NCBI GenBank assembly: GCA_965261135.1
Contig: OZ253443.1
Location: 2,416,841-2,480,840 of the forward strand
Reading direction: 5' to 3'
Length of the DNA: 64,000 nucleotides
Source of the DNA: Acidimicrobiia bacterium
Lineage (GTDB): Bacteria; Actinomycetota; Acidimicrobiia; Spongiisociales; ZC4RG35
Positions 5,225-58,938 of this stretch are shown here, piece after piece (positions within the stretch are counted from its first letter, which is position 1; each line of letters opens with the position of its first letter). A program made the translations under genes and the position numbers. The notes under the pieces were generated by a model. That model saw nothing but the letters and a program-made list of their open reading frames with translations. It did no database searches and was not told the DNA's origin.

Positions 5225-6292
5225 TCACTCCGTTTCAGCCGCCGGTGTCTGCGGAGGAGGATCGTGAACGACTAGCCGACCGTCGGGTCGGTGCGTGTTG
5301 GAGTAGTCGCGGGCCGAGTTTGTCAGCGCCCGGAGCACCTCCATCTTGGTTCCTAGCGGCACCGAGCCCTCCGGGGCGATCCCGTTGACCCCAGATTCGA
5401 GCACTTTCATGCACGCCTCGTAGGTGTCCTCATAAGTGCCGCTGAACAGGGTCGTAGGGTTGTTGATGTTGCCCATCAGCGACATGCGGTCCCCGGCGAT
5501 CTCTTTGGCGACGTAGGGATCGACCTGGGACTCGAAATGGAAACAGTCCCAACCCGCCTCGGCGAAGTAGTCGATCCGGTCGGTCGTCTCCCCACAGCAG
5601 TGAAAGATGCTCGGCCCACCCATTTCGACAGTCACCCCTTTGTGCATCTCGAGGAGAAAATCACGATACGTTTCAGGACTGACCAGCTCCCGGTTGGCGT
5701 GGTCGGCCCACATCACCGCGTCGGCGCCCGCTTCCAGTTGAGCGTGGGCCGACATCATGCATGCGGGAAGCAGCACTTCAAGATAGCGGCGGATCTTGTC
5801 CGGGTCGAGAATCGTATCCATGAGGAAATTCTCGATCCCGACGAGGTGGTACCCCACCGACCAGGGACCGTACACCTTCCCGACGATGCCGACATCGGGG
5901 TAACGCTTCCGGAGCAGTCTGATGGCGCCCAGCGCCGCTTCGAACGACGGCCGTTTCAGGTAGTCGGAAGGGATTTTGAAGTCTTCGGGGTCGGATAGCA
6001 CATGGTCGCTGGTAGCCGGCCAGTTGTCCACGGCTCCCCACCAAGTTGCCGCGTCGAGAGCGTCGGCTTCGAGTTGGGAATGGAATACCGGCATGATCGT
6101 GTCGAGACCGAGTTCTTCGTGGGCGGTGGCCGCCAGGCGGGCCATCTTCTCTGCGTCGAGATGCGCCTCGGGGAACCACGCGTCGGCGATTTCCATTGCA
6201 TCAAGGGTTACCACCGAGCTGAGTGTCATGGCAGGCACCTTGTCGACCCGCCCGCCGTACAGCGCGGACAGGAAACGGCGGCGTGGGGTCAT
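5225..6292 (-). CDS. substrate:corrinoid methyltransferase, uroporphyrinogen-decarboxylase (URO-D/MtaA/CmuA) family, MT1 type
   Basis: URO-D-fold sequence (FHCCGETTD, GIAPEGSVPLGT). Start trimmed to the ATG at 6290-6292 (MTPRRRFLSALYGG). The track ORF runs to 6514 with no intervening stop. Confidence 0.65.
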   Translation of the reverse strand: MTPRRRFLSALYGGRVDKVPAMTLSSVVTLDAMEIADAWFPEAHLDAEKMARLAATAHEELGLDTIMPVFHSQLEADALDAATWWGAVDNWPATSDHVLSDPEDFKIPSDYLKRPSFEAALGAIRLLRKRYPDVGIVGKVYGPWSVGYHLVGIENFLMDTILDPDKIRRYLEVLLPACMMSAHAQLEAGADAVMWADHANRELVSPETYRDFLLEMHKGVTVEMGGPSIFHCCGETTDRIDYFAEAGWDCFHFESQVDPYVAKEIAGDRMSLMGNINNPTTLFSGTYEDTYEACMKVLESGVNGIAPEGSVPLGTKMEVLRALTNSARDYSNTHRPDGRLVVHDPPPQTPAAETE

Positions 6293-6566
6293 CCACTCAC
6301 CGGTGAGCCGGGTGAAGTTCTCACCCCTTCTCTTTATCTTTGCAGGAGAGATAGCCGATCCTTTCCACGCGCTGGCCTCACCCGGACGACAGGATAGGGG
6401 GGTTTTCGAAAAGCGCTTACAGTTGGAGGATAACAACCGGGTGTGCTGCCCAATGACCCCTTGGGGGGAGAATCCCAGAGCTTCAACCTCGGTCTGGGGC
6501 ATCGCGGCGCTCACCCCAACTAATATCCACTAAGAAGCGCTTGCTCAGAGACAAGGAGTAATAACC

Positions 6567-7733
6567 ATGACACATGTCCCCGTATCCCATCTCACTTCGG
6601 ATGCCGAGCGTGCCCGACGCTACGCCGCCCTCCGGGAAGTCATGGCCGGCGCCGGCCACGATGCCTGGGTTATCTGCAGCCGCGGCGACGAGTTCGTGCG
6701 TGGACGGGTCCAGTACGTAAGCGACATCTTCCAGTGGGCGGGCCGTGGCTTCGTGGTGTTCCCCTCCTCGGGCGAGGCCATTTTCGTGGTCGACCCGCTC
6801 TGGGGTACCGGCTACGCCATGCAGGGCAGATGGCTCAACGACTACCGCCAGCCCGACAACGCCGGAGCGGAAATCGGAGCGATCCTTTCCGACCTTGGGG
6901 TGTCCAACGGAACCGTGGGAGTAGTGGGACTGGCCGACATCACCGCCGTTGCGGACTACAACGACATGCGCAATGCCCTCCCCAACGCCACCTGGCAGGA
7001 CGCCACCGACCTGTTCGATGACGTCCGGATGATCAAGAGCCAAGAGGAGATCGACGCCACCTACGAGACCGGCAAGATCGTGCGCCAGGTGTTCAGAGGG
7101 ATAGAGGCGGAAATACGCCCCGGTGTCCAGGAGCTCGATGTCCTCTCCGAGGCGCACCGACTGGCGCGTCAACTGGGCTGCATGGAGGGTATCGCCCTGA
7201 TGGGCCGCGCCCCCTTCGAGTGCTTCGGACCGGGAACCCGCGGAGTGATCGAGGAAGACGACATCATGGTGTTCGACCTGGAGTGGGGAGGCCCTTCAGG
7301 CTACTGGGTGGAGGTTCGCAGGGTGTACAGCTTCAAGCCTCCAACCGCTGAACAGCAGGCGTTCTGGGAGATGCGGGTGGAGAGCTTCGATGCCGTCGTG
7401 CAGGCAATGAAAGCTGGAGAGTCATCCAACACCGTCCTCGACGCTCGCGATCGGGTCTACGAAGCCTGGGGATATCCTTCGGCGAAGGGCATCAACTCCT
7501 ATACCGCCCACGGCATCGGCGTCGACTCCCTGGAACCGCCGTGGATACCGGGGAAGGAGCGGATCATGCAGGAGAACATGATCATCAACACCCATCCGGC
7601 GGTCCGAATCGACGACCCCGTGAAGGGCTCCATGCTGGGCGGGATCAGCATCGCCGACAACGTCCTGGTCACCGCGGACGGTCCGGTCCGGATGGTCGAT
7701 CAGGTCGACGAATGGATCGTGCTCGACTGCTGA
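6567..7733 (+). CDS. M24-family metallohydrolase (Xaa-Pro aminopeptidase/creatinase fold)
   Basis: N-terminal creatinase/prolidase-like domain plus C-terminal pita-bread domain with HGIGVD motif. AAGGAG Shine-Dalgarno precedes the ATG at 6567. Divergent from the methyltransferase operon. Confidence 0.6.
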   Translation: MTHVPVSHLTSDAERARRYAALREVMAGAGHDAWVICSRGDEFVRGRVQYVSDIFQWAGRGFVVFPSSGEAIFVVDPLWGTGYAMQGRWLNDYRQPDNAGAEIGAILSDLGVSNGTVGVVGLADITAVADYNDMRNALPNATWQDATDLFDDVRMIKSQEEIDATYETGKIVRQVFRGIEAEIRPGVQELDVLSEAHRLARQLGCMEGIALMGRAPFECFGPGTRGVIEEDDIMVFDLEWGGPSGYWVEVRRVYSFKPPTAEQQAFWEMRVESFDAVVQAMKAGESSNTVLDARDRVYEAWGYPSAKGINSYTAHGIGVDSLEPPWIPGKERIMQENMIINTHPAVRIDDPVKGSMLGGISIADNVLVTADGPVRMVDQVDEWIVLDC

Positions 7734-7927
7734 GCGCTTTCCCCCTTAAGTAAGAACCCCTCGACCGGCCGAGGCCGGGGCTCAGCGCTCCGGCCTCGCG
7801 TCGCGTTCGGGCGAAGTCTCCACTCCGACCTAGGCCCGCGGCGCATCTGCGCTGCGACATAGCCGTAGTCCGGCAGGTGGTTTTCCGAGGATGGACTTCC
7901 TGCGCCTAAAGGGCGTGAACGCCCCGT

Positions 7928-8677
7928 TCAGTCCGGATAGTTGTAATAGCTCCCTCGGAAATACCCCAGCGCGGGCCGGTCGGTTTCAGCCATCTCCATT
8001 TTCTCCACTTCACCCAGGTAGATAACATGGTCGCCGCCGTCATAGCCGGCGATCACCCGGCACTCGAACCGCGCTATGTAGTCAGAGAGGAGAGGAACCC
8101 CTCCCAAACCCGGCGACCAGGAAACTCCATCGAGTTTTTCTGCCCCGGAGAGATCGCTCCGAGTGAATCGTCGCGACACCGACTCCTGATCCGCCGAGAG
8201 AACATGCACCGCGTAGCGGGTGGCAGTGGACATGATGCGGTAGCTGTTGGTCTCCCGATCGATGCACACCAGAACCAAGGGCGGATCGAGAGAAACCGAT
8301 GTGAAAGAGTTGACCACCAGCGCGGTCGGGACAGAATCCTGATCGATGGAGGTGACCGCGTTAACTCCGGTCATGAACTGTCCGCAGGCCTTTCGGAACT
8401 CGTTGGTGTCTACAACGTCTCGAGCCGAGATTGGCTCATCGCTCTCCACGCTGTCGCCCAACCAACGGATCAGACTACCGACCCGACGAGCCGGAAAAGG
8501 AAGCCTCTCATCACCCTCCACACTGTGACCCAGCCTGCGAACCAGGTGCCCCACCCGACGAGCTGGAACCAAGACCCGCTCTTCCACCCCTATGCCGTCG
8601 CCAAGCTTGCGAACCAGACGCCTAACGTGCTGCGGCGAAGACGGAGATTCCTTGTTCGATTCCATACCGTTCTCCAT
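7928..8677 (-). CDS. flavin reductase (HpaC-like FMN-binding split barrel) with repeat-containing N-terminal extension
   Basis: C-terminal ~170 aa carry FRKACGQFMTGVNAVTS and VLVCIDRETNSY segments typical of NAD(P)H-flavin reductases. N-terminal ~75 aa are three degenerate 22-23 aa repeats. Confidence 0.6.
   Translation of the reverse strand: MENGMESNKESPSSPQHVRRLVRKLGDGIGVEERVLVPARRVGHLVRRLGHSVEGDERLPFPARRVGSLIRWLGDSVESDEPISARDVVDTNEFRKACGQFMTGVNAVTSIDQDSVPTALVVNSFTSVSLDPPLVLVCIDRETNSYRIMSTATRYAVHVLSADQESVSRRFTRSDLSGAEKLDGVSWSPGLGGVPLLSDYIARFECRVIAGYDGGDHVIYLGEVEKMEMAETDRPALGYFRGSYYNYPD
8431..8640 (-). repeat. three imperfect ~66-69 bp tandem repeats encoding the PARRVGxLVRRLGxSVEGDE units
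   Basis: Repeats visible at DNA level (ccgacgagccgg...gcgaaccag... reiterated) and in the protein as VRRLVRKLGDGIGVEE / ARRVGHLVRRLGHSVEGDE / ARRVGSLIRWLGDSVESDE. Confidence 0.55.
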
Positions 8678-19476: not shown

Positions 19477-20328
19477 CTACCCCAGGGTGACGGTGTCAAA
19501 ATCGTTGGCCACTATCACCTCTCCGGTGTAACCACCGCAGCGGACATCGTCCACAAAACCCTGCCGATCCTCCTCGGTGACCGGCTCCGGGATGAGGTGG
19601 GTCAGCACCAGAGTTGGTATCTCAAGTTCTTGGGCTTGGGCTCCTATTAGCACTGTGTCGGCGTGATAGTCCAGCACAAAGTGCAAGTGCTCAGGACGAG
19701 CCCGGATCAGCTCGAAGCGCATCGCCTCGTAGACAAGAACATCGGCTCCGCCGGCCAGAGCAGCCATCTCGGGGCACACCAAGGTGTCACCACTGATAGC
19801 CACCACTCCGGCAGGCGTTTCCACCCGATACCCCACCGCCGGGAAGACCGGCTCATGCCGCACCGGCCCTGCTAACACCCGAACCTCGCCCTTCGACCAG
19901 ACTTCGATCAAAGAATTTCCGATCTCAAACGGCGTCACTTCGAGGCCAGGGCGGGTCCCCCTACAGGTATGGGCGCTCCGCACCTCCAAATCATGCTCCC
20001 AGGGGTCGAGCATCCTCTCTAAGAAGTCCGTCGCCGGCCCGGCAGGCGCCAAGATCGGAAGAGGCGGCGCCTCGTCGAGCCGGTCCATAATCCACCGCGA
20101 CATCACCAGATCCTCCAAACCACTGACATGATCACTGTGATGATGGGTGACAAACACCGCATCCAAGTCAACCGGCGAAACCCCGCAACTCGCCAGACGC
20201 ATAGAAGTCGCCCGTCCCGCATCGAACTGCAACGCCACTCCCTCCGACCGCACCAGCACCCCCGGCCCCGCCCGATCCGGCGAAGGAACCGGCATCCCAG
20301 TTCCGGTGATTGTCGCCGACGTGACCAT
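19477..20328 (-). CDS. MBL-fold metallo-hydrolase
   Basis: HxHxDH motif VFVTHHHSDHVSGL. Start trimmed to the ATG at 20326-20328. Confidence 0.65.
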   Translation of the reverse strand: MVTSATITGTGMPVPSPDRAGPGVLVRSEGVALQFDAGRATSMRLASCGVSPVDLDAVFVTHHHSDHVSGLEDLVMSRWIMDRLDEAPPLPILAPAGPATDFLERMLDPWEHDLEVRSAHTCRGTRPGLEVTPFEIGNSLIEVWSKGEVRVLAGPVRHEPVFPAVGYRVETPAGVVAISGDTLVCPEMAALAGGADVLVYEAMRFELIRARPEHLHFVLDYHADTVLIGAQAQELEIPTLVLTHLIPEPVTEEDRQGFVDDVRCGGYTGEVIVANDFDTVTLG

Positions 20329-20354
20329 GTCTTGCTGTCTACTCTGCAGTTTCG

Positions 20355-20876
20355 CTATCGGACATCGTGAAAGGACTTGAACATTTCGCTCACATCTCTG
20401 TTGTTCCCTTGGCACAGCTGATCGAAAGCTGATGGCCCCATATTTCCCGGTTCCAATAGGAGCATGGTTGTCTTGGCTGGATCTCCTAGGTCAAGGGCCC
20501 GCACGATCCCAACGATCTGCATGAGGCGCTCCACGTTAGAGGCACTAGGGCTTTTACCTTGTGCCCAAAAGTGCAAGGACCGACGCTGTACGCGCAATGC
20601 TTGCGCAAGTTGTGTCCAAGTCAGTTCGGTCTTGCTCCTGAGTTCCGCTAAGGCACGTTGGCTGGACAGTGGTTCGTGAAGATAGGTACGGCCGTATGTT
20701 GTTCCAATCCCTATTAGCAGGAAAGAACCTTTTTGGTTGTCCGTAAAGGCAGCCCCACTGTTTGTGCCAATAGCTGTCCAAGTGGAGAGAACACCGCTTG
20801 GTCCAGTATCTGTATGCAAAACCGGGTTCTGGCCAATCTGGGATCCTCCCAACAAGAACGGGATTCCTACGTTCAA
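20355..20876 (-). CDS. hypothetical protein with Gly/Thr-rich N-terminus and central XRE-like HTH
   Basis: 173 aa. The only in-frame start before the HTH (LRSKTELTWTQLAQALRVQRRSLHFWAQGKSP) is TTG at 20874-20876, which overlaps the TGA of the upstream gene (TTGA). GGTGG SD 6 nt upstream. GC ~50% vs ~65% background. Confidence 0.45.
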   Translation of the reverse strand: MNVGIPFLLGGSQIGQNPVLHTDTGPSGVLSTWTAIGTNSGAAFTDNQKGSFLLIGIGTTYGRTYLHEPLSSQRALAELRSKTELTWTQLAQALRVQRRSLHFWAQGKSPSASNVERLMQIVGIVRALDLGDPAKTTMLLLEPGNMGPSAFDQLCQGNNRDVSEMFKSFHDVR

Positions 20877-21700
20877 ACTGCACCACCATATTGGCGGAGC
20901 AGATCAGGGCGCACAGCCCACCGGAAGAACCGATAGATGTGTTCCGCGAAACTGGCCCCTATTGAAATCACCTGATCGACATCGAATCTGCTGACCTGGG
21001 TTGTGTACATGTCAAGATCCAGGATCCAGGAGGGAGAAGCGATGGTTTCTCCATGAAGGGGATCGAGTTGTGCATTAGAGGGGAGCCATCCCCAGCGTCC
21101 GTGAAACGTAGCGTTCCCGATTCGATAGGATGTGTCGGAGACGCTATGTACGAGTTCCGCGCCCTCACCCGGGTTGACTGTGACCACGCCTAGCATTTCG
21201 GGTTTGACAAGGGCACCAAGGTTCATCTCGATCTCATCGAGACGAACCCGATCCACGTAGCGGATACCGACCCGATCGTAAGTGGAGGGAGCAATGGTGG
21301 CCGCCAGCGCATCGATGACTGCGTGAAGCCGCCTGAGAAAGTCGATCCTACTTTCGTACTCAGACGTGTCGAGTGCAACAAATGACGGCGCCAAGGAGAC
21401 TTTCCAGGCTGGATTTGTCGGGCGGTCAAGAAACCGCCAGATCGGATTGGACTGACCTGCGGAACTGACACCCTCCTGAGTGAGAACGATGTTCGCCTCA
21501 CGCTCTTGGCGTAAAACGGGATAGTCCGCTCGGATCCTCTCTTGGAAAGGCCCGATGAACTCCTCCCGCGTGATCGACACAATGGGCGGAAACCTGACCT
21601 GTGCCACAACAGCGACCAGAGGTGCTGATGAGAGTGGGATCTCCTCAACAGGTTCCCCAAACGGAGTCTGCAAATCTAACGCGGCGGTCACACTCCCCAT
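20873..21700 (-). CDS. hypothetical protein (recalls the uncharacterised TIGR04255-type family; unverified)
   Basis: 276 aa from the ATG at 21698-21700 (MGSVTAALDLQTPFGEP..., APLVAVVAQVRFPPI segment). GC ~55%. Translationally coupled to the downstream HTH gene. Confidence 0.4.
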   Translation of the reverse strand: MGSVTAALDLQTPFGEPVEEIPLSSAPLVAVVAQVRFPPIVSITREEFIGPFQERIRADYPVLRQEREANIVLTQEGVSSAGQSNPIWRFLDRPTNPAWKVSLAPSFVALDTSEYESRIDFLRRLHAVIDALAATIAPSTYDRVGIRYVDRVRLDEIEMNLGALVKPEMLGVVTVNPGEGAELVHSVSDTSYRIGNATFHGRWGWLPSNAQLDPLHGETIASPSWILDLDMYTTQVSRFDVDQVISIGASFAEHIYRFFRWAVRPDLLRQYGGAV

Positions 21701-21769
21701 TTTAATCACTTCGCGATCCCTCCCGGAGTGTGTAGTATTGTGTGAAATAGAAGAAAGGAGGTGAAAACC

Positions 21770-21895
21770 ATGGCAACTCGGAAAGTCCACCGCTCCGCGG
21801 TGTCGGGCCGCTTCGTAAAGCCCTCGACAGCTAAGCGACACCCTCGCACCACCATCACCCAGACCATCAAAACGTCAAAGAAGAAGGGCAAGTAA
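21770..21895 (+). CDS. unannotated 41-aa highly basic small ORF with strong Shine-Dalgarno
   Basis: AAAGGAGGTGA then an 8-nt spacer then ATG. MATRKVHRSAVSGRFVKPSTAKRHPRTTITQTIKTSKKKGK. Divergent from the 20873-21700 gene. Below the ORF-track length cutoff. Confidence 0.3.
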   Translation: MATRKVHRSAVSGRFVKPSTAKRHPRTTITQTIKTSKKKGK

Positions 21896-22094
21896 AGAGA
21901 GTCAGGCAACCAAACCGCCATCACAGAATGAGGAGAGGCCCGCAACAACCGTAACAGGAGTGTCGCGAAGCCTTGCCGAGCGGCCCGGTTCCCTGATCCC
22001 TACGAGGCATCTCAACGAAGCCGAATCACTTGCCCAGCAAGAGGTGGGATGACTTTCATCCCAGCCGTCAGCCATACACCAGAAAGGAAGCGAT

Positions 22095-22382
22095 ATGACA
22101 CAATACGAATATAACGGCGAAACATTCTTCATCGATGACGCGGCAGACACCTGTGAAATCAAGGTTTCCGACAAGACCAATACCGTATCCATCACTCTGA
22201 ATCAAAACGGGGCTAGCACCTACAGAGTATCCACAATTGAGGGCAACTGGTGGTGGCACACCAGCACAGTTGAGGAATCTGTCAACAGAGCATGTCGGGT
22301 GTTGATTGACTATGAAAAGGCTACTCCTTCGGAAGAAGCTTGTGCGGATATGCACAAATTTGTAAAGAATCTCCCTGCCTAA
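22095..22382 (+). CDS. hypothetical 95-aa protein, low-GC orphan
   Basis: GC ~45% in a ~65% genome. SD-like gaaaggaag before the ATG. No recognisable motif. Confidence 0.4.
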   Translation: MTQYEYNGETFFIDDAADTCEIKVSDKTNTVSITLNQNGASTYRVSTIEGNWWWHTSTVEESVNRACRVLIDYEKATPSEEACADMHKFVKNLPA

Positions 22383-22601
22383 CAGCTCTCATCAGATAGA
22401 TCTGGGGTTTGATAGCTTGGAGGAAACGGAATATCTTTGACCCCCGTGAGGACGATTACCAATCACCGCCAGGTTTCAGCCCTAAACGCTGTGCGCACAA
22501 TACTTGGAATAAAATGGTGCCCGTGGATCGGAGCCTTTCTTGAAGGCTGGAGCCTATCAGGGCTCCCTACGCCCCATGGCTTCATCGGACGGAGCGGCGT
22601 C

Positions 22602-47271: not shown

Positions 47272-48618
47272 AGGCTTCGCGATATGTTGGGATTCGGGTA
47301 GGGAGGGGGTCCTTGTTTAGGGGTTGAGGCCTCGCTGGAATAGGTGGTGTAAATCTGCCTATCCAGGAGGCCTCAATGAGTTTCGATGTTATGAGGGTGC
47401 GGTTGCACCTGCGTGGTGTTGGTGTGACCGGTGTGGTGGTGGACACCCCCGCAGAGTTGGTGGTGGAGGTGATGTCCACCAGGAAGTTGTCATCGTGTCC
47501 GTTTTGTGGGCGTTCTTGCCGGCGGGTTCATGACCGTCGCCGGAGGGAGATCCGTGATCTGGAGCACGGCGGCCGCCCGACGGTGCTGTTATGGACCCAG
47601 CGGCGGTTCGTGTGCAACCATTGTGGAAAGCGTCATATGGAAACCCATCCCCAGTTCGAGGGTGGTCTCACTCGCCGGTTGGCGCGCAGGCTGGTCCAAG
47701 ACGCTCAGGTGATGCCGATCAGTGCGGTGTCCCGCCGCCACCGTGTGGGGTGGCATCTGGTCATGGGACTGCTCTGTGACTGGTCGGGACTGGTCCAAGA
47801 TCATCGTCGCAAACAGTCCTGTCGGGTGTTGTTGATTGATGAGACCTCGATCCGCAAACGGCATCGTTATGTGACCGTGATCCTCAACGGTGACACCGGA
47901 GAGCTGTTGGACATGATCCAAGGACGCTCCAAAGCTGCTCTGAGCAGGTTTTTCATCGCGCAAGGACCCCGATGGTGCCAGAACGTGAATACCGTGGTCA
48001 CCGACGGTTCCCACTCCTACCGCGCAGCTATTCATCGTTATCTTCCCCGAGCCCGTCACGTCCTGGACCGCTTCCACGCCGCCCGATGGTTCACCCAAGG
48101 ACTGACCCTGGTACGCCGGGAACTGCAACGCCGCCAACCCCCAGGAGTGAAACCGGCCTACGAACCGGACCTGTTCAGAGCCCGGTTTTGTCTGCTGAAA
48201 CGAAACGACCATCTCACCCCTGCAGACCAACGACGTCTCCAGCGTTTGTTCGCTGCTCATCCCCGTCTCAAAGTGGCCTGGGACGCCTTACAGGAGCTCT
48301 ACGGCCTGTACGAGGCCAACGATCTCCAAGGCGCCCTGGAAGCCCTCGACCGTTTCGGGGACCTCTACAACAGCGGACAGATTCCCGAGTACCACGACAC
48401 CGTGGACACCATCCTCAACTGGGCCGACGAAATCCTGAACTGGCACCACAGCCGCCGTTCCAATGGACCCCTCGAAGGCATCAACAACCTAATCCAAACC
48501 CTCCGCAGAACCGCCCACGGCTTCACAAACCCCCAAAACTACGCCGCCCGAGGACTCCTCCTAACATGAACCCCACCACCAACCAGCCAGACCACAATCC
48601 CACGAATTCGCGAAGGGC
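47272..48618 (+). mobile_element. ISL3-family insertion sequence (~1.35 kb) with a 10-bp target-site duplication
   Basis: Direct repeat CAACAATTTG at 47262-47271 and 48619-48628. Imperfect terminal inverted repeats: gaggcttcgcgatatgttggg at the left end, and cccacgaattcgcgaagggcc at the right end in the inverted sense. Single transposase ORF inside. Confidence 0.75.
47376..48569 (+). CDS. ISL3-family transposase
   Basis: N-terminal zinc-finger CPFCG...CNHCG. DDE domain with the characteristic ISL3 C-terminal region (…HHSRRSNGPLEGINNLIQTLRRTAHGF). Confidence 0.8.
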   Translation: MSFDVMRVRLHLRGVGVTGVVVDTPAELVVEVMSTRKLSSCPFCGRSCRRVHDRRRREIRDLEHGGRPTVLLWTQRRFVCNHCGKRHMETHPQFEGGLTRRLARRLVQDAQVMPISAVSRRHRVGWHLVMGLLCDWSGLVQDHRRKQSCRVLLIDETSIRKRHRYVTVILNGDTGELLDMIQGRSKAALSRFFIAQGPRWCQNVNTVVTDGSHSYRAAIHRYLPRARHVLDRFHAARWFTQGLTLVRRELQRRQPPGVKPAYEPDLFRARFCLLKRNDHLTPADQRRLQRLFAAHPRLKVAWDALQELYGLYEANDLQGALEALDRFGDLYNSGQIPEYHDTVDTILNWADEILNWHHSRRSNGPLEGINNLIQTLRRTAHGFTNPQNYAARGLLLT

Positions 48619-48672
48619 CAACAATTTGGACAGATGCGTCTTCGCTTGGTGGACGTTCACGATCGAAGTCAT
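48619..48672 (-). pseudogene. stranded 5' end (18 codons) of the antitoxin gene with its SD
   Basis: Minus strand reads AAGGAGGAGAAAGCC-ATG ACT TCG ATC GTG AAC GTC CAC CAA GCG AAG ACG CAT CTG TCC AAA TTG TTG (MTSIVNVHQAKTHLSKLL). This joins in frame to DRAHAGEE... at 47267 once the IS is removed. Confidence 0.6.
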
Positions 48673-48810
48673 GGCTTTCTCCTCCTCTTAGTCTGCCTGT
48701 GGACTTATCTATAGGTAATATTAGCTAAGTCTATAAACTAAGGTATCTATTCGGGTCCTGCCAAGGGAAGCCCCGCTTCTTCTTGCCTTGGAGGCAGCCG
48801 GGCATATCAC

Positions 48811-48893
48811 AAGCCGGGGGTCTTCGGATGCTCCGGTGCACAAACGGCAATTCCCATAGCCGTCAAGCCCGCTCCGATCACTTCAACTGGCAA
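48811..48893 (-). pseudogene. degenerate duplicate of the eamA 3' end
   Basis: ~85% identical over ~80 nt to 50346-50425 (C-terminal codons and stop of the EamA gene), but with in-frame stops and an indel. Confidence 0.45.
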
Positions 48894-48904
48894 AAGCGAT
48901 TTGC

Positions 48905-49912
48905 TCAAAAGCCGTGGTTCGTATCTTGGTCTTGCAGGTCTCCCATGATCTTCTCGATCCGTGGGTCGAATTCTTCTTTGAACTTGGGCAAGAGATCAAG
49001 CATCCACGCTCTAATGTCCTTCTGTTTCGCTGGTGAGTCGGTTATCGAGCCGTCTCTCTTTAATGAGTTGATTTCGGAGAACAGAAAGGGGTTATGTCTC
49101 CGCCAGTCCCACTCCAATGATGGCTCCGCGGTGATGGTTCTTTCAATCTCCTGGCGATCCGCCTCCAAGGCATCGAATATGCATTTGGTCAGATCCTTTT
49201 CGTGGGTCGCAATATGAAGGGTCACCCAGGCAGCCTCTTCAACCCCAAGAGTGACCGTGTACCAAATGCCTTTGTTAACGGGAGAAGGAAAGCCACGATC
49301 CTTATAGCTAAAAATCTGGATAGGTTGCTTTTTGAAAGCGCCTTTCTGGATCAGTTTGTCAACCAAAGGCTTGAAAAACTCTTGGTGGATCAACTTCTCG
49401 ACGGGCAGGTCGGTTGGACGCAGGGTGAGTTCCTTGTTCCAGCCGCCGGGGTAGACCACTTTGCGGAATCTGGGCTCGGGTTGTGAGCCTACCGGGGCCT
49501 TCACAGCTTCGATCTTGACACCGTAGAGCCGGGTCCCATCCGCAGTCCTCTCATTGAGCCAATGCAGAGCTTTAGCATGCTCACGGAGGAATTCGGGCGC
49601 AACCCATATCATCACTTGCGCCCCACGACCCGCCGCGTAGGTGAGCAACTTGCCCAGATGGTCGTGGTCGGTCCACTTCAATTGGTTCTCGATTGCAACC
49701 AAGGTTTCCTGGTCCGAATCGGCTTCTTTCGCCAGGATGTCCAAAGAGAACCGGCCTACTTGTGTTTCCTGGCCGACTAACTCCAACCGGAGCCCGATTT
49801 CCTCCCCCAATAGGTGCAGATTCTTAGCTAGCCATGGGGTGAATTCACGCGCCTCATGCTTCCATATTGTATGGACATCTACCTGCTCGGCGCCCGGTTG
49901 GCTCTCACGCAT
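48905..49912 (-). CDS. hypothetical protein with PD-(D/E)xK nuclease-like N-terminal motifs
   Basis: GRFSLDILAKEADSDQETLVAIENQLKWTDHDHLGKLLTY resembles the D...E-x-K/Q ... (Q/K)xxxY core of restriction-endonuclease-like folds. GC ~50%. Start is the ATG at 49910-49912 (MRESQ...) or the ATG at 49943-49945. Confidence 0.45.
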   Translation of the reverse strand: MRESQPGAEQVDVHTIWKHEAREFTPWLAKNLHLLGEEIGLRLELVGQETQVGRFSLDILAKEADSDQETLVAIENQLKWTDHDHLGKLLTYAAGRGAQVMIWVAPEFLREHAKALHWLNERTADGTRLYGVKIEAVKAPVGSQPEPRFRKVVYPGGWNKELTLRPTDLPVEKLIHQEFFKPLVDKLIQKGAFKKQPIQIFSYKDRGFPSPVNKGIWYTVTLGVEEAAWVTLHIATHEKDLTKCIFDALEADRQEIERTITAEPSLEWDWRRHNPFLFSEINSLKRDGSITDSPAKQKDIRAWMLDLLPKFKEEFDPRIEKIMGDLQDQDTNHGF

Positions 49913-49919
49913 GAGTTCC

Positions 49920-50276
49920 CTATTCCTTCCTGACACCGCTGTCACCGGGTCTGATCACGAAGTCGCGACGGTCCCGATAGAGCAGCGCCCGGTTCAGCAC
50001 ATAGTCGTCAGACTCCAAGTCGATGTCCGGGCACTCCGTCATCGTCCAGTACTTGTAATCACCCAGGAACAGATAGTTTCGCTTCTGGTGGAAGAACCAG
50101 CATTCCACGCCCTCATCTGCGGCGATCCGGGCACAAAACGCAGCTAACAAAGCCTGCTGTCCGTCCCTTTTGATCACCACGTATTCGTGAGGCCAGGAAT
50201 TCCGGTATGTAACCGCCTCCCGCCACGGAGCACTGGATATCAACCCCATAATTTCCACAATTCGCTCTTTCGACAC
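49920..50276 (-). CDS. hypothetical 118-aa protein, partner of the nuclease-like gene
   Basis: GTG at 50274-50276 preceded by AGGAGGA at 5-nt spacing. Only the 3' third of the 362-aa track ORF is plausible. Ends 7 nt before the next start. Confidence 0.4.
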   Translation of the reverse strand: MSKERIVEIMGLISSAPWREAVTYRNSWPHEYVVIKRDGQQALLAAFCARIAADEGVECWFFHQKRNYLFLGDYKYWTMTECPDIDLESDDYVLNRALLYRDRRDFVIRPGDSGVRKE

Positions 50277-58787: not shown

Positions 58788-58858
58788 GGCGGGTGTAGTT
58801 CAATGGCAGAACACGAGCTTCCCAAGCTCGGAGTGGGGGTTCGATTCCCCTCACCCGC
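58788..58858 (+). tRNA. tRNA-Gly (anticodon CCC), CCA not encoded
   Basis: GCGGGTG/CACCCGC acceptor stem, anticodon loop TTCCCAA, T-arm GGGGGTTCGATTCCCCT. Near-identical in architecture to bacterial glyU. Confidence 0.8.
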
Positions 58859-58938
58859 TCTCCATCGGAGCCGCCTACGGCATGCTCCGTGGCGGTGACT
58901 ACGCTATGTATCGTCAATCCTGACCCCTTCCCTGGAGG

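Follow-up and report, generated by a model that had tools for sequence, protein, structure and literature searches.

The 64,000-nucleotide stretch of Acidimicrobiia bacterium contig OZ253443.1 analysed here (positions 2,416,841 to 2,480,840 of the forward strand; hereafter the window) carries on its minus strand two overlapping genes, called A and B in this work, that are what is left of a mobile cassette of three genes, cut short at its 3' end and lying within a horizontally acquired islet. Gene A (20873..21703, ATG at 21703 and TGA at 20873) encodes an intact TIGR04255-family protein of 276 aa, and an alternative GTG start at 21709, two codons earlier, would give the 278-aa protein of database entry P0027. 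Gene B (20355..20876, TTG start and TAG stop at 20357-20355) encodes a C-terminally truncated protein of 173 aa. An earlier, sequence-only reading had listed these open reading frames (ORFs) as a pair without a strand and had proposed that they are translationally coupled. Both are present on the minus strand and the junction (20873..20887) is exactly as described, with direct reading of the sequence giving GGTGG (20887-20883), a 6-nt spacer (tgcagt) and the stop/start overlap TTGA (20876-20873).

The coupling is not peculiar to the window. The overlap has the form NTGA in 84 of 86 related loci (76 ATGA and 7 GTGA), and the window copy is the only one with a TTGA junction. A motif resembling GGAGG is encoded in the related loci within the conserved ...YGG codons at the C-terminus of A. 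Since the NTGA overlap is kept across the loci, the TTG of the window corresponds to the homologous start of B, though it is a weaker one. Judging from the sequences compared, the conserved overlap at this position is not a matter of chance.

A search for homologs of B recovered 26 relatives (E down to 3.9e-41), and all of the complete ones are 226-237 aa long. In these relatives a family-specific N-terminal domain precedes an XRE-type helix-turn-helix (HTH) and its helical middle segment, and the protein ends in a basic tail of ~55 aa. The tail, with the motif RRPPxLSxEERxRRxGLxPxER, is present in all full-length relatives and absent from the window protein (alignment A1, of B relatives). Window B keeps the N-terminal domain, the HTH and the conserved segment after it; of the 228 positions of the B profile it covers 13-172 only, and its homology ends at 20364. 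The scar of the truncation (20329..20363, minus strand) takes in the end of the B reading frame, where the codons are no longer homologous, then the TAG stop and a 26-nt spacer that leads to the ATG, at 20328, of a gene for a metallo-beta-lactamase (MBL)-fold hydrolase (19477-20328, minus strand). It is here that the absent tail and the third gene of the cassette would be expected. No remnant of the B tail was found elsewhere in the window, and tblastn with three orthologs of C, the third gene of the cassette, found no trace of it in the 64 kb (best E 0.38). A tblastn alignment that runs past the stop of B was judged to be a chance match because it overlaps the conserved N-terminus of the MBL-fold gene.

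The N-terminal domain of B (aa 1 to ~70, 20667..20876, minus strand) had been noted from the sequence as an unusual Gly/Thr-rich stretch of ~70 aa. It is translated and family-specific; it aligns with the 226-237-aa homologs around the motifs W..GTSG and PGTT.GW and is kept in the shortened mini-B variants described below. The XRE-type HTH (aa 72-125, 20502..20663, minus strand), which had also been proposed, is supported by matches that are consistent but below threshold in the window copy. It matches HTH_31 at 24.5 bits (gathering threshold 27; E 3.3e-5; residues 75-125) and HTH_3 at 18.1 bits (gathering threshold 23), and the invariant columns run from L76 to R126. When whole families were scanned permissively against Pfam (E up to 10; 18 members for B and 55 for C), all 18 aligned B members matched both HTH_3 and HTH_31 (best E 2e-7). 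The C-terminal toxin-binding domain of Xre/MbcA/ParS type that B had been thought to resemble went undetected: Xre_MbcA_ParS_C has no match in window B (E up to 1) or in any of the 18 members (E up to 10). Six of the 18 weakly match PF20432 ("Antitoxin Xre-like HTH") and one faintly matches the Xre-MbcA-ParS middle domain. PADLOC returned only weak HTH-level matches for B, to RmrA and CapH. There is no RES or ADP-ribosyltransferase (ART) partner beside B, as its neighbors are the TIGR04255 gene and C, neither of which has a RES/ART family match or fold.

Gene A belongs to TIGR04255, as the sequence-only reading had suggested. The window protein scores 138.7 bits against the NCBIfam model (cutoff 30; E 2.8e-40) over model positions 2-249 of 252 and is thus a full-length member of the uncharacterized family "sporadTIGR04255", whose name carries no function. 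The orthologs in three related loci (L001, L002 and L004; the L-numbers label related loci or contigs compared with the window copy) score 133.6-154.1 bits, and window A is 62-67% identical to its cassette orthologs. All 25 invariant columns of an alignment of 54 A sequences (A2) are kept in the window protein. These include R90, R125, R144, R148, R203, D229 and D231, which suggest a ligand-binding or catalytic face. The family is large, with 5,738 clusters at 50% identity for E up to 1e-3 and 3,530 for E up to 1e-10, and a distant homolog of A lies in a 6.8-kb record labeled "Bacteriophage sp." (MT837485).

An AF2 model of A has high confidence scores (pLDDT 93.2, pTM 0.90). Its best structural matches are the catalytic domains of phosphagen and protein-arginine kinases, glutamate-cysteine ligase and glutamine synthetase, and TBP-like proteins are also among the matches of a search of viral structures. 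On this basis A is predicted to have a TBP/guanido-kinase-like fold. The likeness to the catalytic domains of phosphagen and protein-arginine kinases (McsB, arginine kinase) and to TBP-like pseudo-dimers is a resemblance of fold class only, as identity is 7-9% and there is no sequence-family match. A has no Pfam domain, and Pfam, PADLOC and PHROGs were uninformative except for a weak full-length match to phrog_35157, whose function is unknown. Searches of the Protein Data Bank (PDB) sequences with A, B and C, as single sequences and as profiles, gave only noise. The sequence models used throughout were Pfam (2025 copy), NCBIfam (June 2026), PADLOC-DB v2.0.0 and PHROGs.

The relatives of the window copy define a unit of three genes. 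Every longer contig with a B relative encodes a 258-272-aa protein whose gene overlaps B by 4 nt, then B, then C, and the first gene of the trio is always TIGR04255. C encodes a protein of 285-287 aa and starts 3 nt downstream of B on these contigs, with gaps of 3-60 nt between B and C across the relatives. Two sets of loci were compared. The first was anchored on A, with one genome per species and the best 80 of 269 loci kept, and 75 of these had enough sequence to judge the third gene. The second was anchored on C in metagenome contigs and had 60 loci with enough upstream sequence. B-type genes follow A in all but two of the A-anchored loci. An intact third gene follows A and B in ~64 of the 75 informative loci, counting the A-B'-C' variant described below, and A, B and C occur together in 56 of the 60 C-anchored loci. 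Overall, the third gene is present in ~93% of more than 130 informative loci, which come from many phyla and from plasmids. The A-anchored loci come from Acidimicrobiia, sponge-associated metagenome-assembled genomes (MAGs), Cyanobacteria, Myxococcota, Gammaproteobacteria, Gemmatimonadota, Acidobacteriota, Chloroflexota, Planctomycetota and Deinococcota. One subclade at first seemed to have two genes. In it, A in fact overlaps B' (264 aa) by 4 nt, and B' overlaps C' (254-258 aa) by the same length. HHalign identifies B and B' as homologs (probability 98.8%), and the alignment of C with C' is weak, yet it extends across the same N-terminal motifs.

Two further observations bear on the unity of the cassette. 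The three genes change together: over 92 non-redundant intact triads their pairwise identities correlate with one another at r = 0.78-0.83, and the mean pairwise identity is 0.515 for A, 0.468 for B, which evolves fastest, and 0.526 for C. Additionally, the 140 nearest neighbor genes fall into 138 Pfam families, the most frequent being RadC (6), HsdM/N6_Mtase (3) and integrase (2). This spread implies that there is no conserved fourth gene and that the cassette moves as a self-contained element. We therefore treat the three genes as one unit on the grounds of the conserved NTGA junction, the correlated divergence, the lack of a fourth gene and the same architecture in the A-B'-C' subclade.

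The cassette has plasmid-borne copies in Chroococcidiopsis thermalis PCC 7203, Sinorhizobium americanum, Kocuria rosea, Sphingomonas paeninsulae, Paenarthrobacter ureafaciens, Acinetobacter baumannii and Vibrio sp. gvc. RefSeq labels the three plasmid genes, in order, "TIGR04255 family protein", "transcriptional regulator" or "HTH domain-containing protein", and "hypothetical protein". Intact cassettes include those of A. baumannii NZ_CP043459 (WP_227504056, WP_000425724, WP_001258235), Vibrio sp. gvc NZ_CP113243 and the Chroococcidiopsis plasmid pCHRO.01. The plasmid cassettes adjoin integrases, insertion sequence (IS) elements or relaxases, two contigs of one sample carry the cassette beside different transposases, and a complete A-B-C cassette is present at 5986-8277 of a 34-kb IMG/VR viral contig (L177, IMGVR_UViG_3300010210_000044). 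Some copies lie in defence islands. The island of L002 (1-12690) contains a type I restriction-modification system (HsdM/S/R), a ThiF and JAB pair, and PycTM-like, PIN and Fic genes, and that of L001 (1-12714) contains a helicase with MZB, PLD, RAMA and AlpA. The view that the cassette lives in defence islands is true of these two loci and was not retained as a general statement in light of the neighbor census. Mobility and foreign origin are argued by the codon composition of the islet described below, by the adjoining transposases, integrases and relaxases, by the IMG/VR contig and by the copies in defence islands.

C is the only member of the cassette with a toxin-like fold. Its layout is a barrel of the MazF/CcdB SH3-like type followed by a catalytically degenerate domain resembling the MNT nucleotidyltransferases. 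At the sequence level C has no match in Pfam, NCBIfam, PADLOC or the PDB, and none of 55 C members matches the Pfam models PemK_toxin or CcdB, even at E up to 10. The hG[GS] and DxD nucleotidyltransferase motifs are not conserved in the alignment of C relatives (A3), where R198, P203, W205 and F216 are the only positions of the MNT-like region with full or almost full conservation. A set of collinear MazF motifs in C (RGD-like, RP and TxEK) was considered and dropped, as the motif order differs from that of MazF and no residue-level structural alignment was available. Two C-bearing loci have an unusual setting. An intact C (286 aa) at L134 3440-4816 stands directly after an IS200/IS605-type transposase gene and a cas2-like gene and has neither A nor B. 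The C gene at L131 692-2839 is N-terminally truncated, lacks the RQGD region and is preceded by an unrelated excisionase-type HTH and PIN-domain pair, and in this locus one toxin-antitoxin (TA)-like module appears to have been partly replaced by another.

The roles of the modules of B can be approached through natural deletions. Three loci (L008 5804-6181, L089 about 7614-7994 and L011 about 5804-6190) encode a mini-B, a single ORF of ~126 aa in which an in-frame deletion of the HTH joins the N-terminal domain directly to the basic tail, beside intact A and C genes. This form arose at least twice independently, once in L008/L089 and once in L011. Window B is the converse, with the N-terminal domain and HTH kept and the tail lost along with C. 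Taken together, the mini-B pattern and the joint loss of the tail and C suggest that the tail handles C and that the HTH serves only regulation.

A candidate operator for this regulation lies upstream of A. The 66-nt intergenic region that separates A from a divergent ORF contains the tandem boxes TATTTCAC(A)-caa-TACTACAC(A) with a 12-nt period (21729..21749, minus strand; TATTTCAC at 21749-21742 and TACTACAC at 21737-21730). A census of 136 non-redundant loci, allowing up to one mismatch and up to 130 nt upstream of A, found TACTTCAC or GTGAAGTA boxes in 123, compared with a background of 0.075 per 150 nt, and these are mostly tandem pairs 12 nt apart. In eight loci the boxes make up a complete nested palindrome, TTCACA-n3-TACTTCACA-n10-TGTGAAGTA-n2-GTGTGAA-n-ATG, that ends at the start codon and holds a TAnnnT hexamer between its right-hand boxes. 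TTCACA-N6-TTCACA (up to one mismatch) occurs once in the 64 kb, at the window pair, against 0.19 occurrences expected by chance. The suggestion that the window operator is degenerate was rejected, as 95 of the 136 loci likewise have left-type tandem boxes only. The TTCACA-type boxes are the natural candidate operator for the HTH of B. The ORF that diverges from A and shares the box-bearing region (21770-21895, plus strand) has its own GGAGG and encodes a very basic 41-aa peptide (MATRKVHRSAVSGRFVKPSTAKRHPRTTITQTIKTSKKKGK), for which there is no Pfam match, plasmid homolog or counterpart beside cassettes elsewhere.

In the window the remnant and two orphan plus-strand ORFs form a low-GC3 islet (20329..22601; GC3 is the GC content at third codon positions) between the MBL-fold hydrolase gene and an AMP-binding acyl-CoA synthetase gene, both flanks identified with Pfam. 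GC3 is 0.60 in A, 0.54 in B and 0.53 in the second orphan ORF, a 95-aa candidate gene, compared with 0.70-0.73 in five flanking genes, which bears out the foreign-GC islet seen in the sequence-only reading. No tRNA, integrase, flanking repeats or terminators mark an insertion at the islet, and Rfam found nothing. GC content falls to its minimum for the window (0.48-0.49) around the 95-aa ORF (22095-22382, plus strand), for which Pfam, PADLOC, PHROGs and plasmid searches gave no match. The MBL-fold hydrolase has a sub-threshold match to the Anti-Pycsar protein Apyc1 (23.2 bits, cutoff 50), which is probably generic MBL similarity. Elsewhere in the window, positions 48001-50000 show a second GC dip (0.54-0.57) with a local GC-skew swing from +0.15 to -0.20 and may be another foreign segment, and a tRNA-Gly(CCC) is located at 58789-58860.

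Decay of the cassette is not confined to the window. In the A-anchored set L015, L019, L036, L041 and L049 have lost all or part of C, and C has stops or frameshifts in L057, L059, L040, L046 and possibly L071, of which some frameshifts may be assembly errors of MAGs. Besides the window, L049 is the only locus of this set altogether without C. A ~1.5-kb insertion splits C between profile positions 181 and 181 in a Desmonostoc MAG (L067 6441-8869). Of the 60 C-anchored loci, 4 lack A or have only part of it.

We lean towards the view that the window carries a decayed copy of a tripartite TA-like cassette in which C would act as the effector and B would be both autoregulator and antitoxin, with A a conserved accessory. 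The mechanism of the intact cassette is inferred with moderate confidence. It would be a tripartite TA-like or abortive-infection-like module in which C arrests growth as the effector, the HTH of B contacts the TTCACA boxes to repress the operon, and the basic C-terminal tail of B neutralizes C. A, made in a fixed ratio with B, would be a ligand-binding or enzymatic accessory, a sensor or modulator, that acts through the N-terminal domain of B. The proposed role of B as autoregulator rests on its HTH and on the boxes in 123 of 136 loci, which overlap the start codon in the eight palindromic cases. A compact co-oriented operon in which a DNA-binding antitoxin-like gene stands next to a toxin-fold gene is found in the intact cassette only. 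The window copy is probably a remnant and not a working effector-plus-antitoxin pair; it would represent a disarmed, effector-less state in which at most A and an autorepressor are still produced. Several observations weigh against this view. Matches to defence models make up only a few percent of the nearest neighbors, and A is as conserved as C, so that A could be the central enzyme instead of an accessory. The free-standing intact C of L134 is awkward for an acutely lethal toxin, and A and the tail-less B are still intact ORFs in the window and may retain a residual two-gene function. C is lost in 11 of 75 loci and A in 4 of 60, a difference without statistical significance (Fisher p = 0.17), and the argument that C is lost more often and is hence the toxic gene was set aside as a weak hint at most.

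The sequence-only reading had proposed an effector-plus-HTH-partner pair of an undescribed TA-like or defence-like type. The kind of module stands, and it is undescribed in the sources covered, but the unit is three genes and not two. A self-sufficient pair in which A is the effector, B is the HTH antitoxin and the window copy is functional would fit the translational coupling, the two intact ORFs and the retention in A of every invariant residue, with an Arg/Asp/Glu cluster compatible with an enzyme. We consider such a pair very improbable, as the third gene is present in most loci of both sets, window B lacks the tail found in all full-length relatives, and no toxin-like family or fold marks A as an effector in Pfam, PADLOC or the structural matches. 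Nor was the putative toxin-binding domain of B detected, and the scarcity of loci that lack C altogether suggests sporadic decay products. With the tail of B and all of C deleted, the window pair probably does not work as a functional module. A different division of labor, the main alternative, would make A the true antitoxin, either as a C-modifying enzyme (type VII-like, as MntA acts on HepT) or as a sequesterer, with B as regulator or adaptor as in omega-epsilon-zeta and the window as an orphan antitoxin and regulator kept after loss of the toxin. The conservation of A at the level of C, its invariant polar residues and the catalytic domains among its best structural matches are consistent with this arrangement, as are the HTH-less mini-B variants, in which regulation is dispensable while A and C persist, and the intact state of A in the window after the loss of C. 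It nonetheless seems rather unlikely to us, and the assignment of neutralization to the tail of B is preferred.

It may also be asked whether the triad is a conflict system at all. It could be a regulatory or nucleic-acid-processing module of mobile elements in which the domains of C are non-toxic, and the window would then hold a harmless fragment. The intact C without A and B in L134, the lack of any sequence-level link of C to a toxin family, and neighbors that are mostly unrelated housekeeping or mobile-element genes agree with this explanation. The sporadic spread across phyla and the association with plasmids and IS elements are hallmarks of TA and abortive-infection systems, and so are the compact operon with putative autoregulation, the member with a toxin fold and the recurrent inactivation of C. 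On balance a role outside conflict is judged quite unlikely, and the TA-like cassette is retained as the preferred interpretation.

A more specific proposal, which we put forward only tentatively, is that the triad is an undescribed and widespread three-component TA or abortive-infection system. In it a MazF/CcdB-fold effector with a dead MNT-like domain would be held in check by a modular HTH protein, a TBP-like or guanido-kinase-like protein would serve as sensor or enzymatic switch, and the window would show a naturally disarmed state. No Pfam, NCBIfam, PADLOC v2 or PHROGs model matched C or the triad, and A and C have no match (E up to 1) among the known anti-phage systems of PADLOC-DB. 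No description of the family or the triad was found in the full-text literature, a coverage that leaves out supplementary files and subscription journals, and no account of TIGR04255 in this literature covers its partnership with B and C, the operator boxes or the fold of A. Within the databases and literature covered, the three-gene cassette thus appears to be undescribed.

The large TIGR04255 family, so far a name without a function, gains a defined genetic context from this comparison. The context is an obligate three-gene cassette with a coupling junction, an operator-like repeat, a modular middle protein and a protein of toxin-like fold that no sequence model recognizes, and it turns the "hypothetical protein" labels in thousands of genomes into a testable hypothesis. 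Some of the carriers are tractable or clinically relevant, among them the plasmids of Acinetobacter baumannii and Vibrio and that of the cultured cyanobacterium Chroococcidiopsis PCC 7203. As a remnant, the window copy itself is of limited interest, and its pair of genes is best annotated as a degraded mobile cassette and not as a working two-gene system.

The cassette can be compared with four groups of known systems. C has no sequence-level membership in the MazEF, Kis-Kid and CcdAB families and carries the extra MNT-like domain. The cassette further differs from these in having three genes with a large conserved first gene and in its antitoxin-like gene, which is the middle one and has an XRE HTH instead of an AbrB or ribbon-helix-helix fold; in the window copy the toxin-like gene is missing as well. 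In comparison with the HEPN-MNT systems (HepT-MntA, type VII), the catalytic motifs are not conserved in the MNT-like domain of C and there is no HEPN partner. B is like the antitoxins of the Xre-RES, ParST and MbcTA systems in that a conserved helical segment comes after its XRE-type HTH, but the toxin-binding domain that defines those proteins was not detected in the B members and no RES/ART toxin adjoins them. The tripartite TA systems omega-epsilon-zeta, PaaR-PaaA-ParE and HigBA-SecB ("TAC") have components that are not homologous to A, B or C and differ in gene order and domain content, but like the cassette they comprise three genes transcribed together, with one component dedicated to DNA binding or an accessory role.

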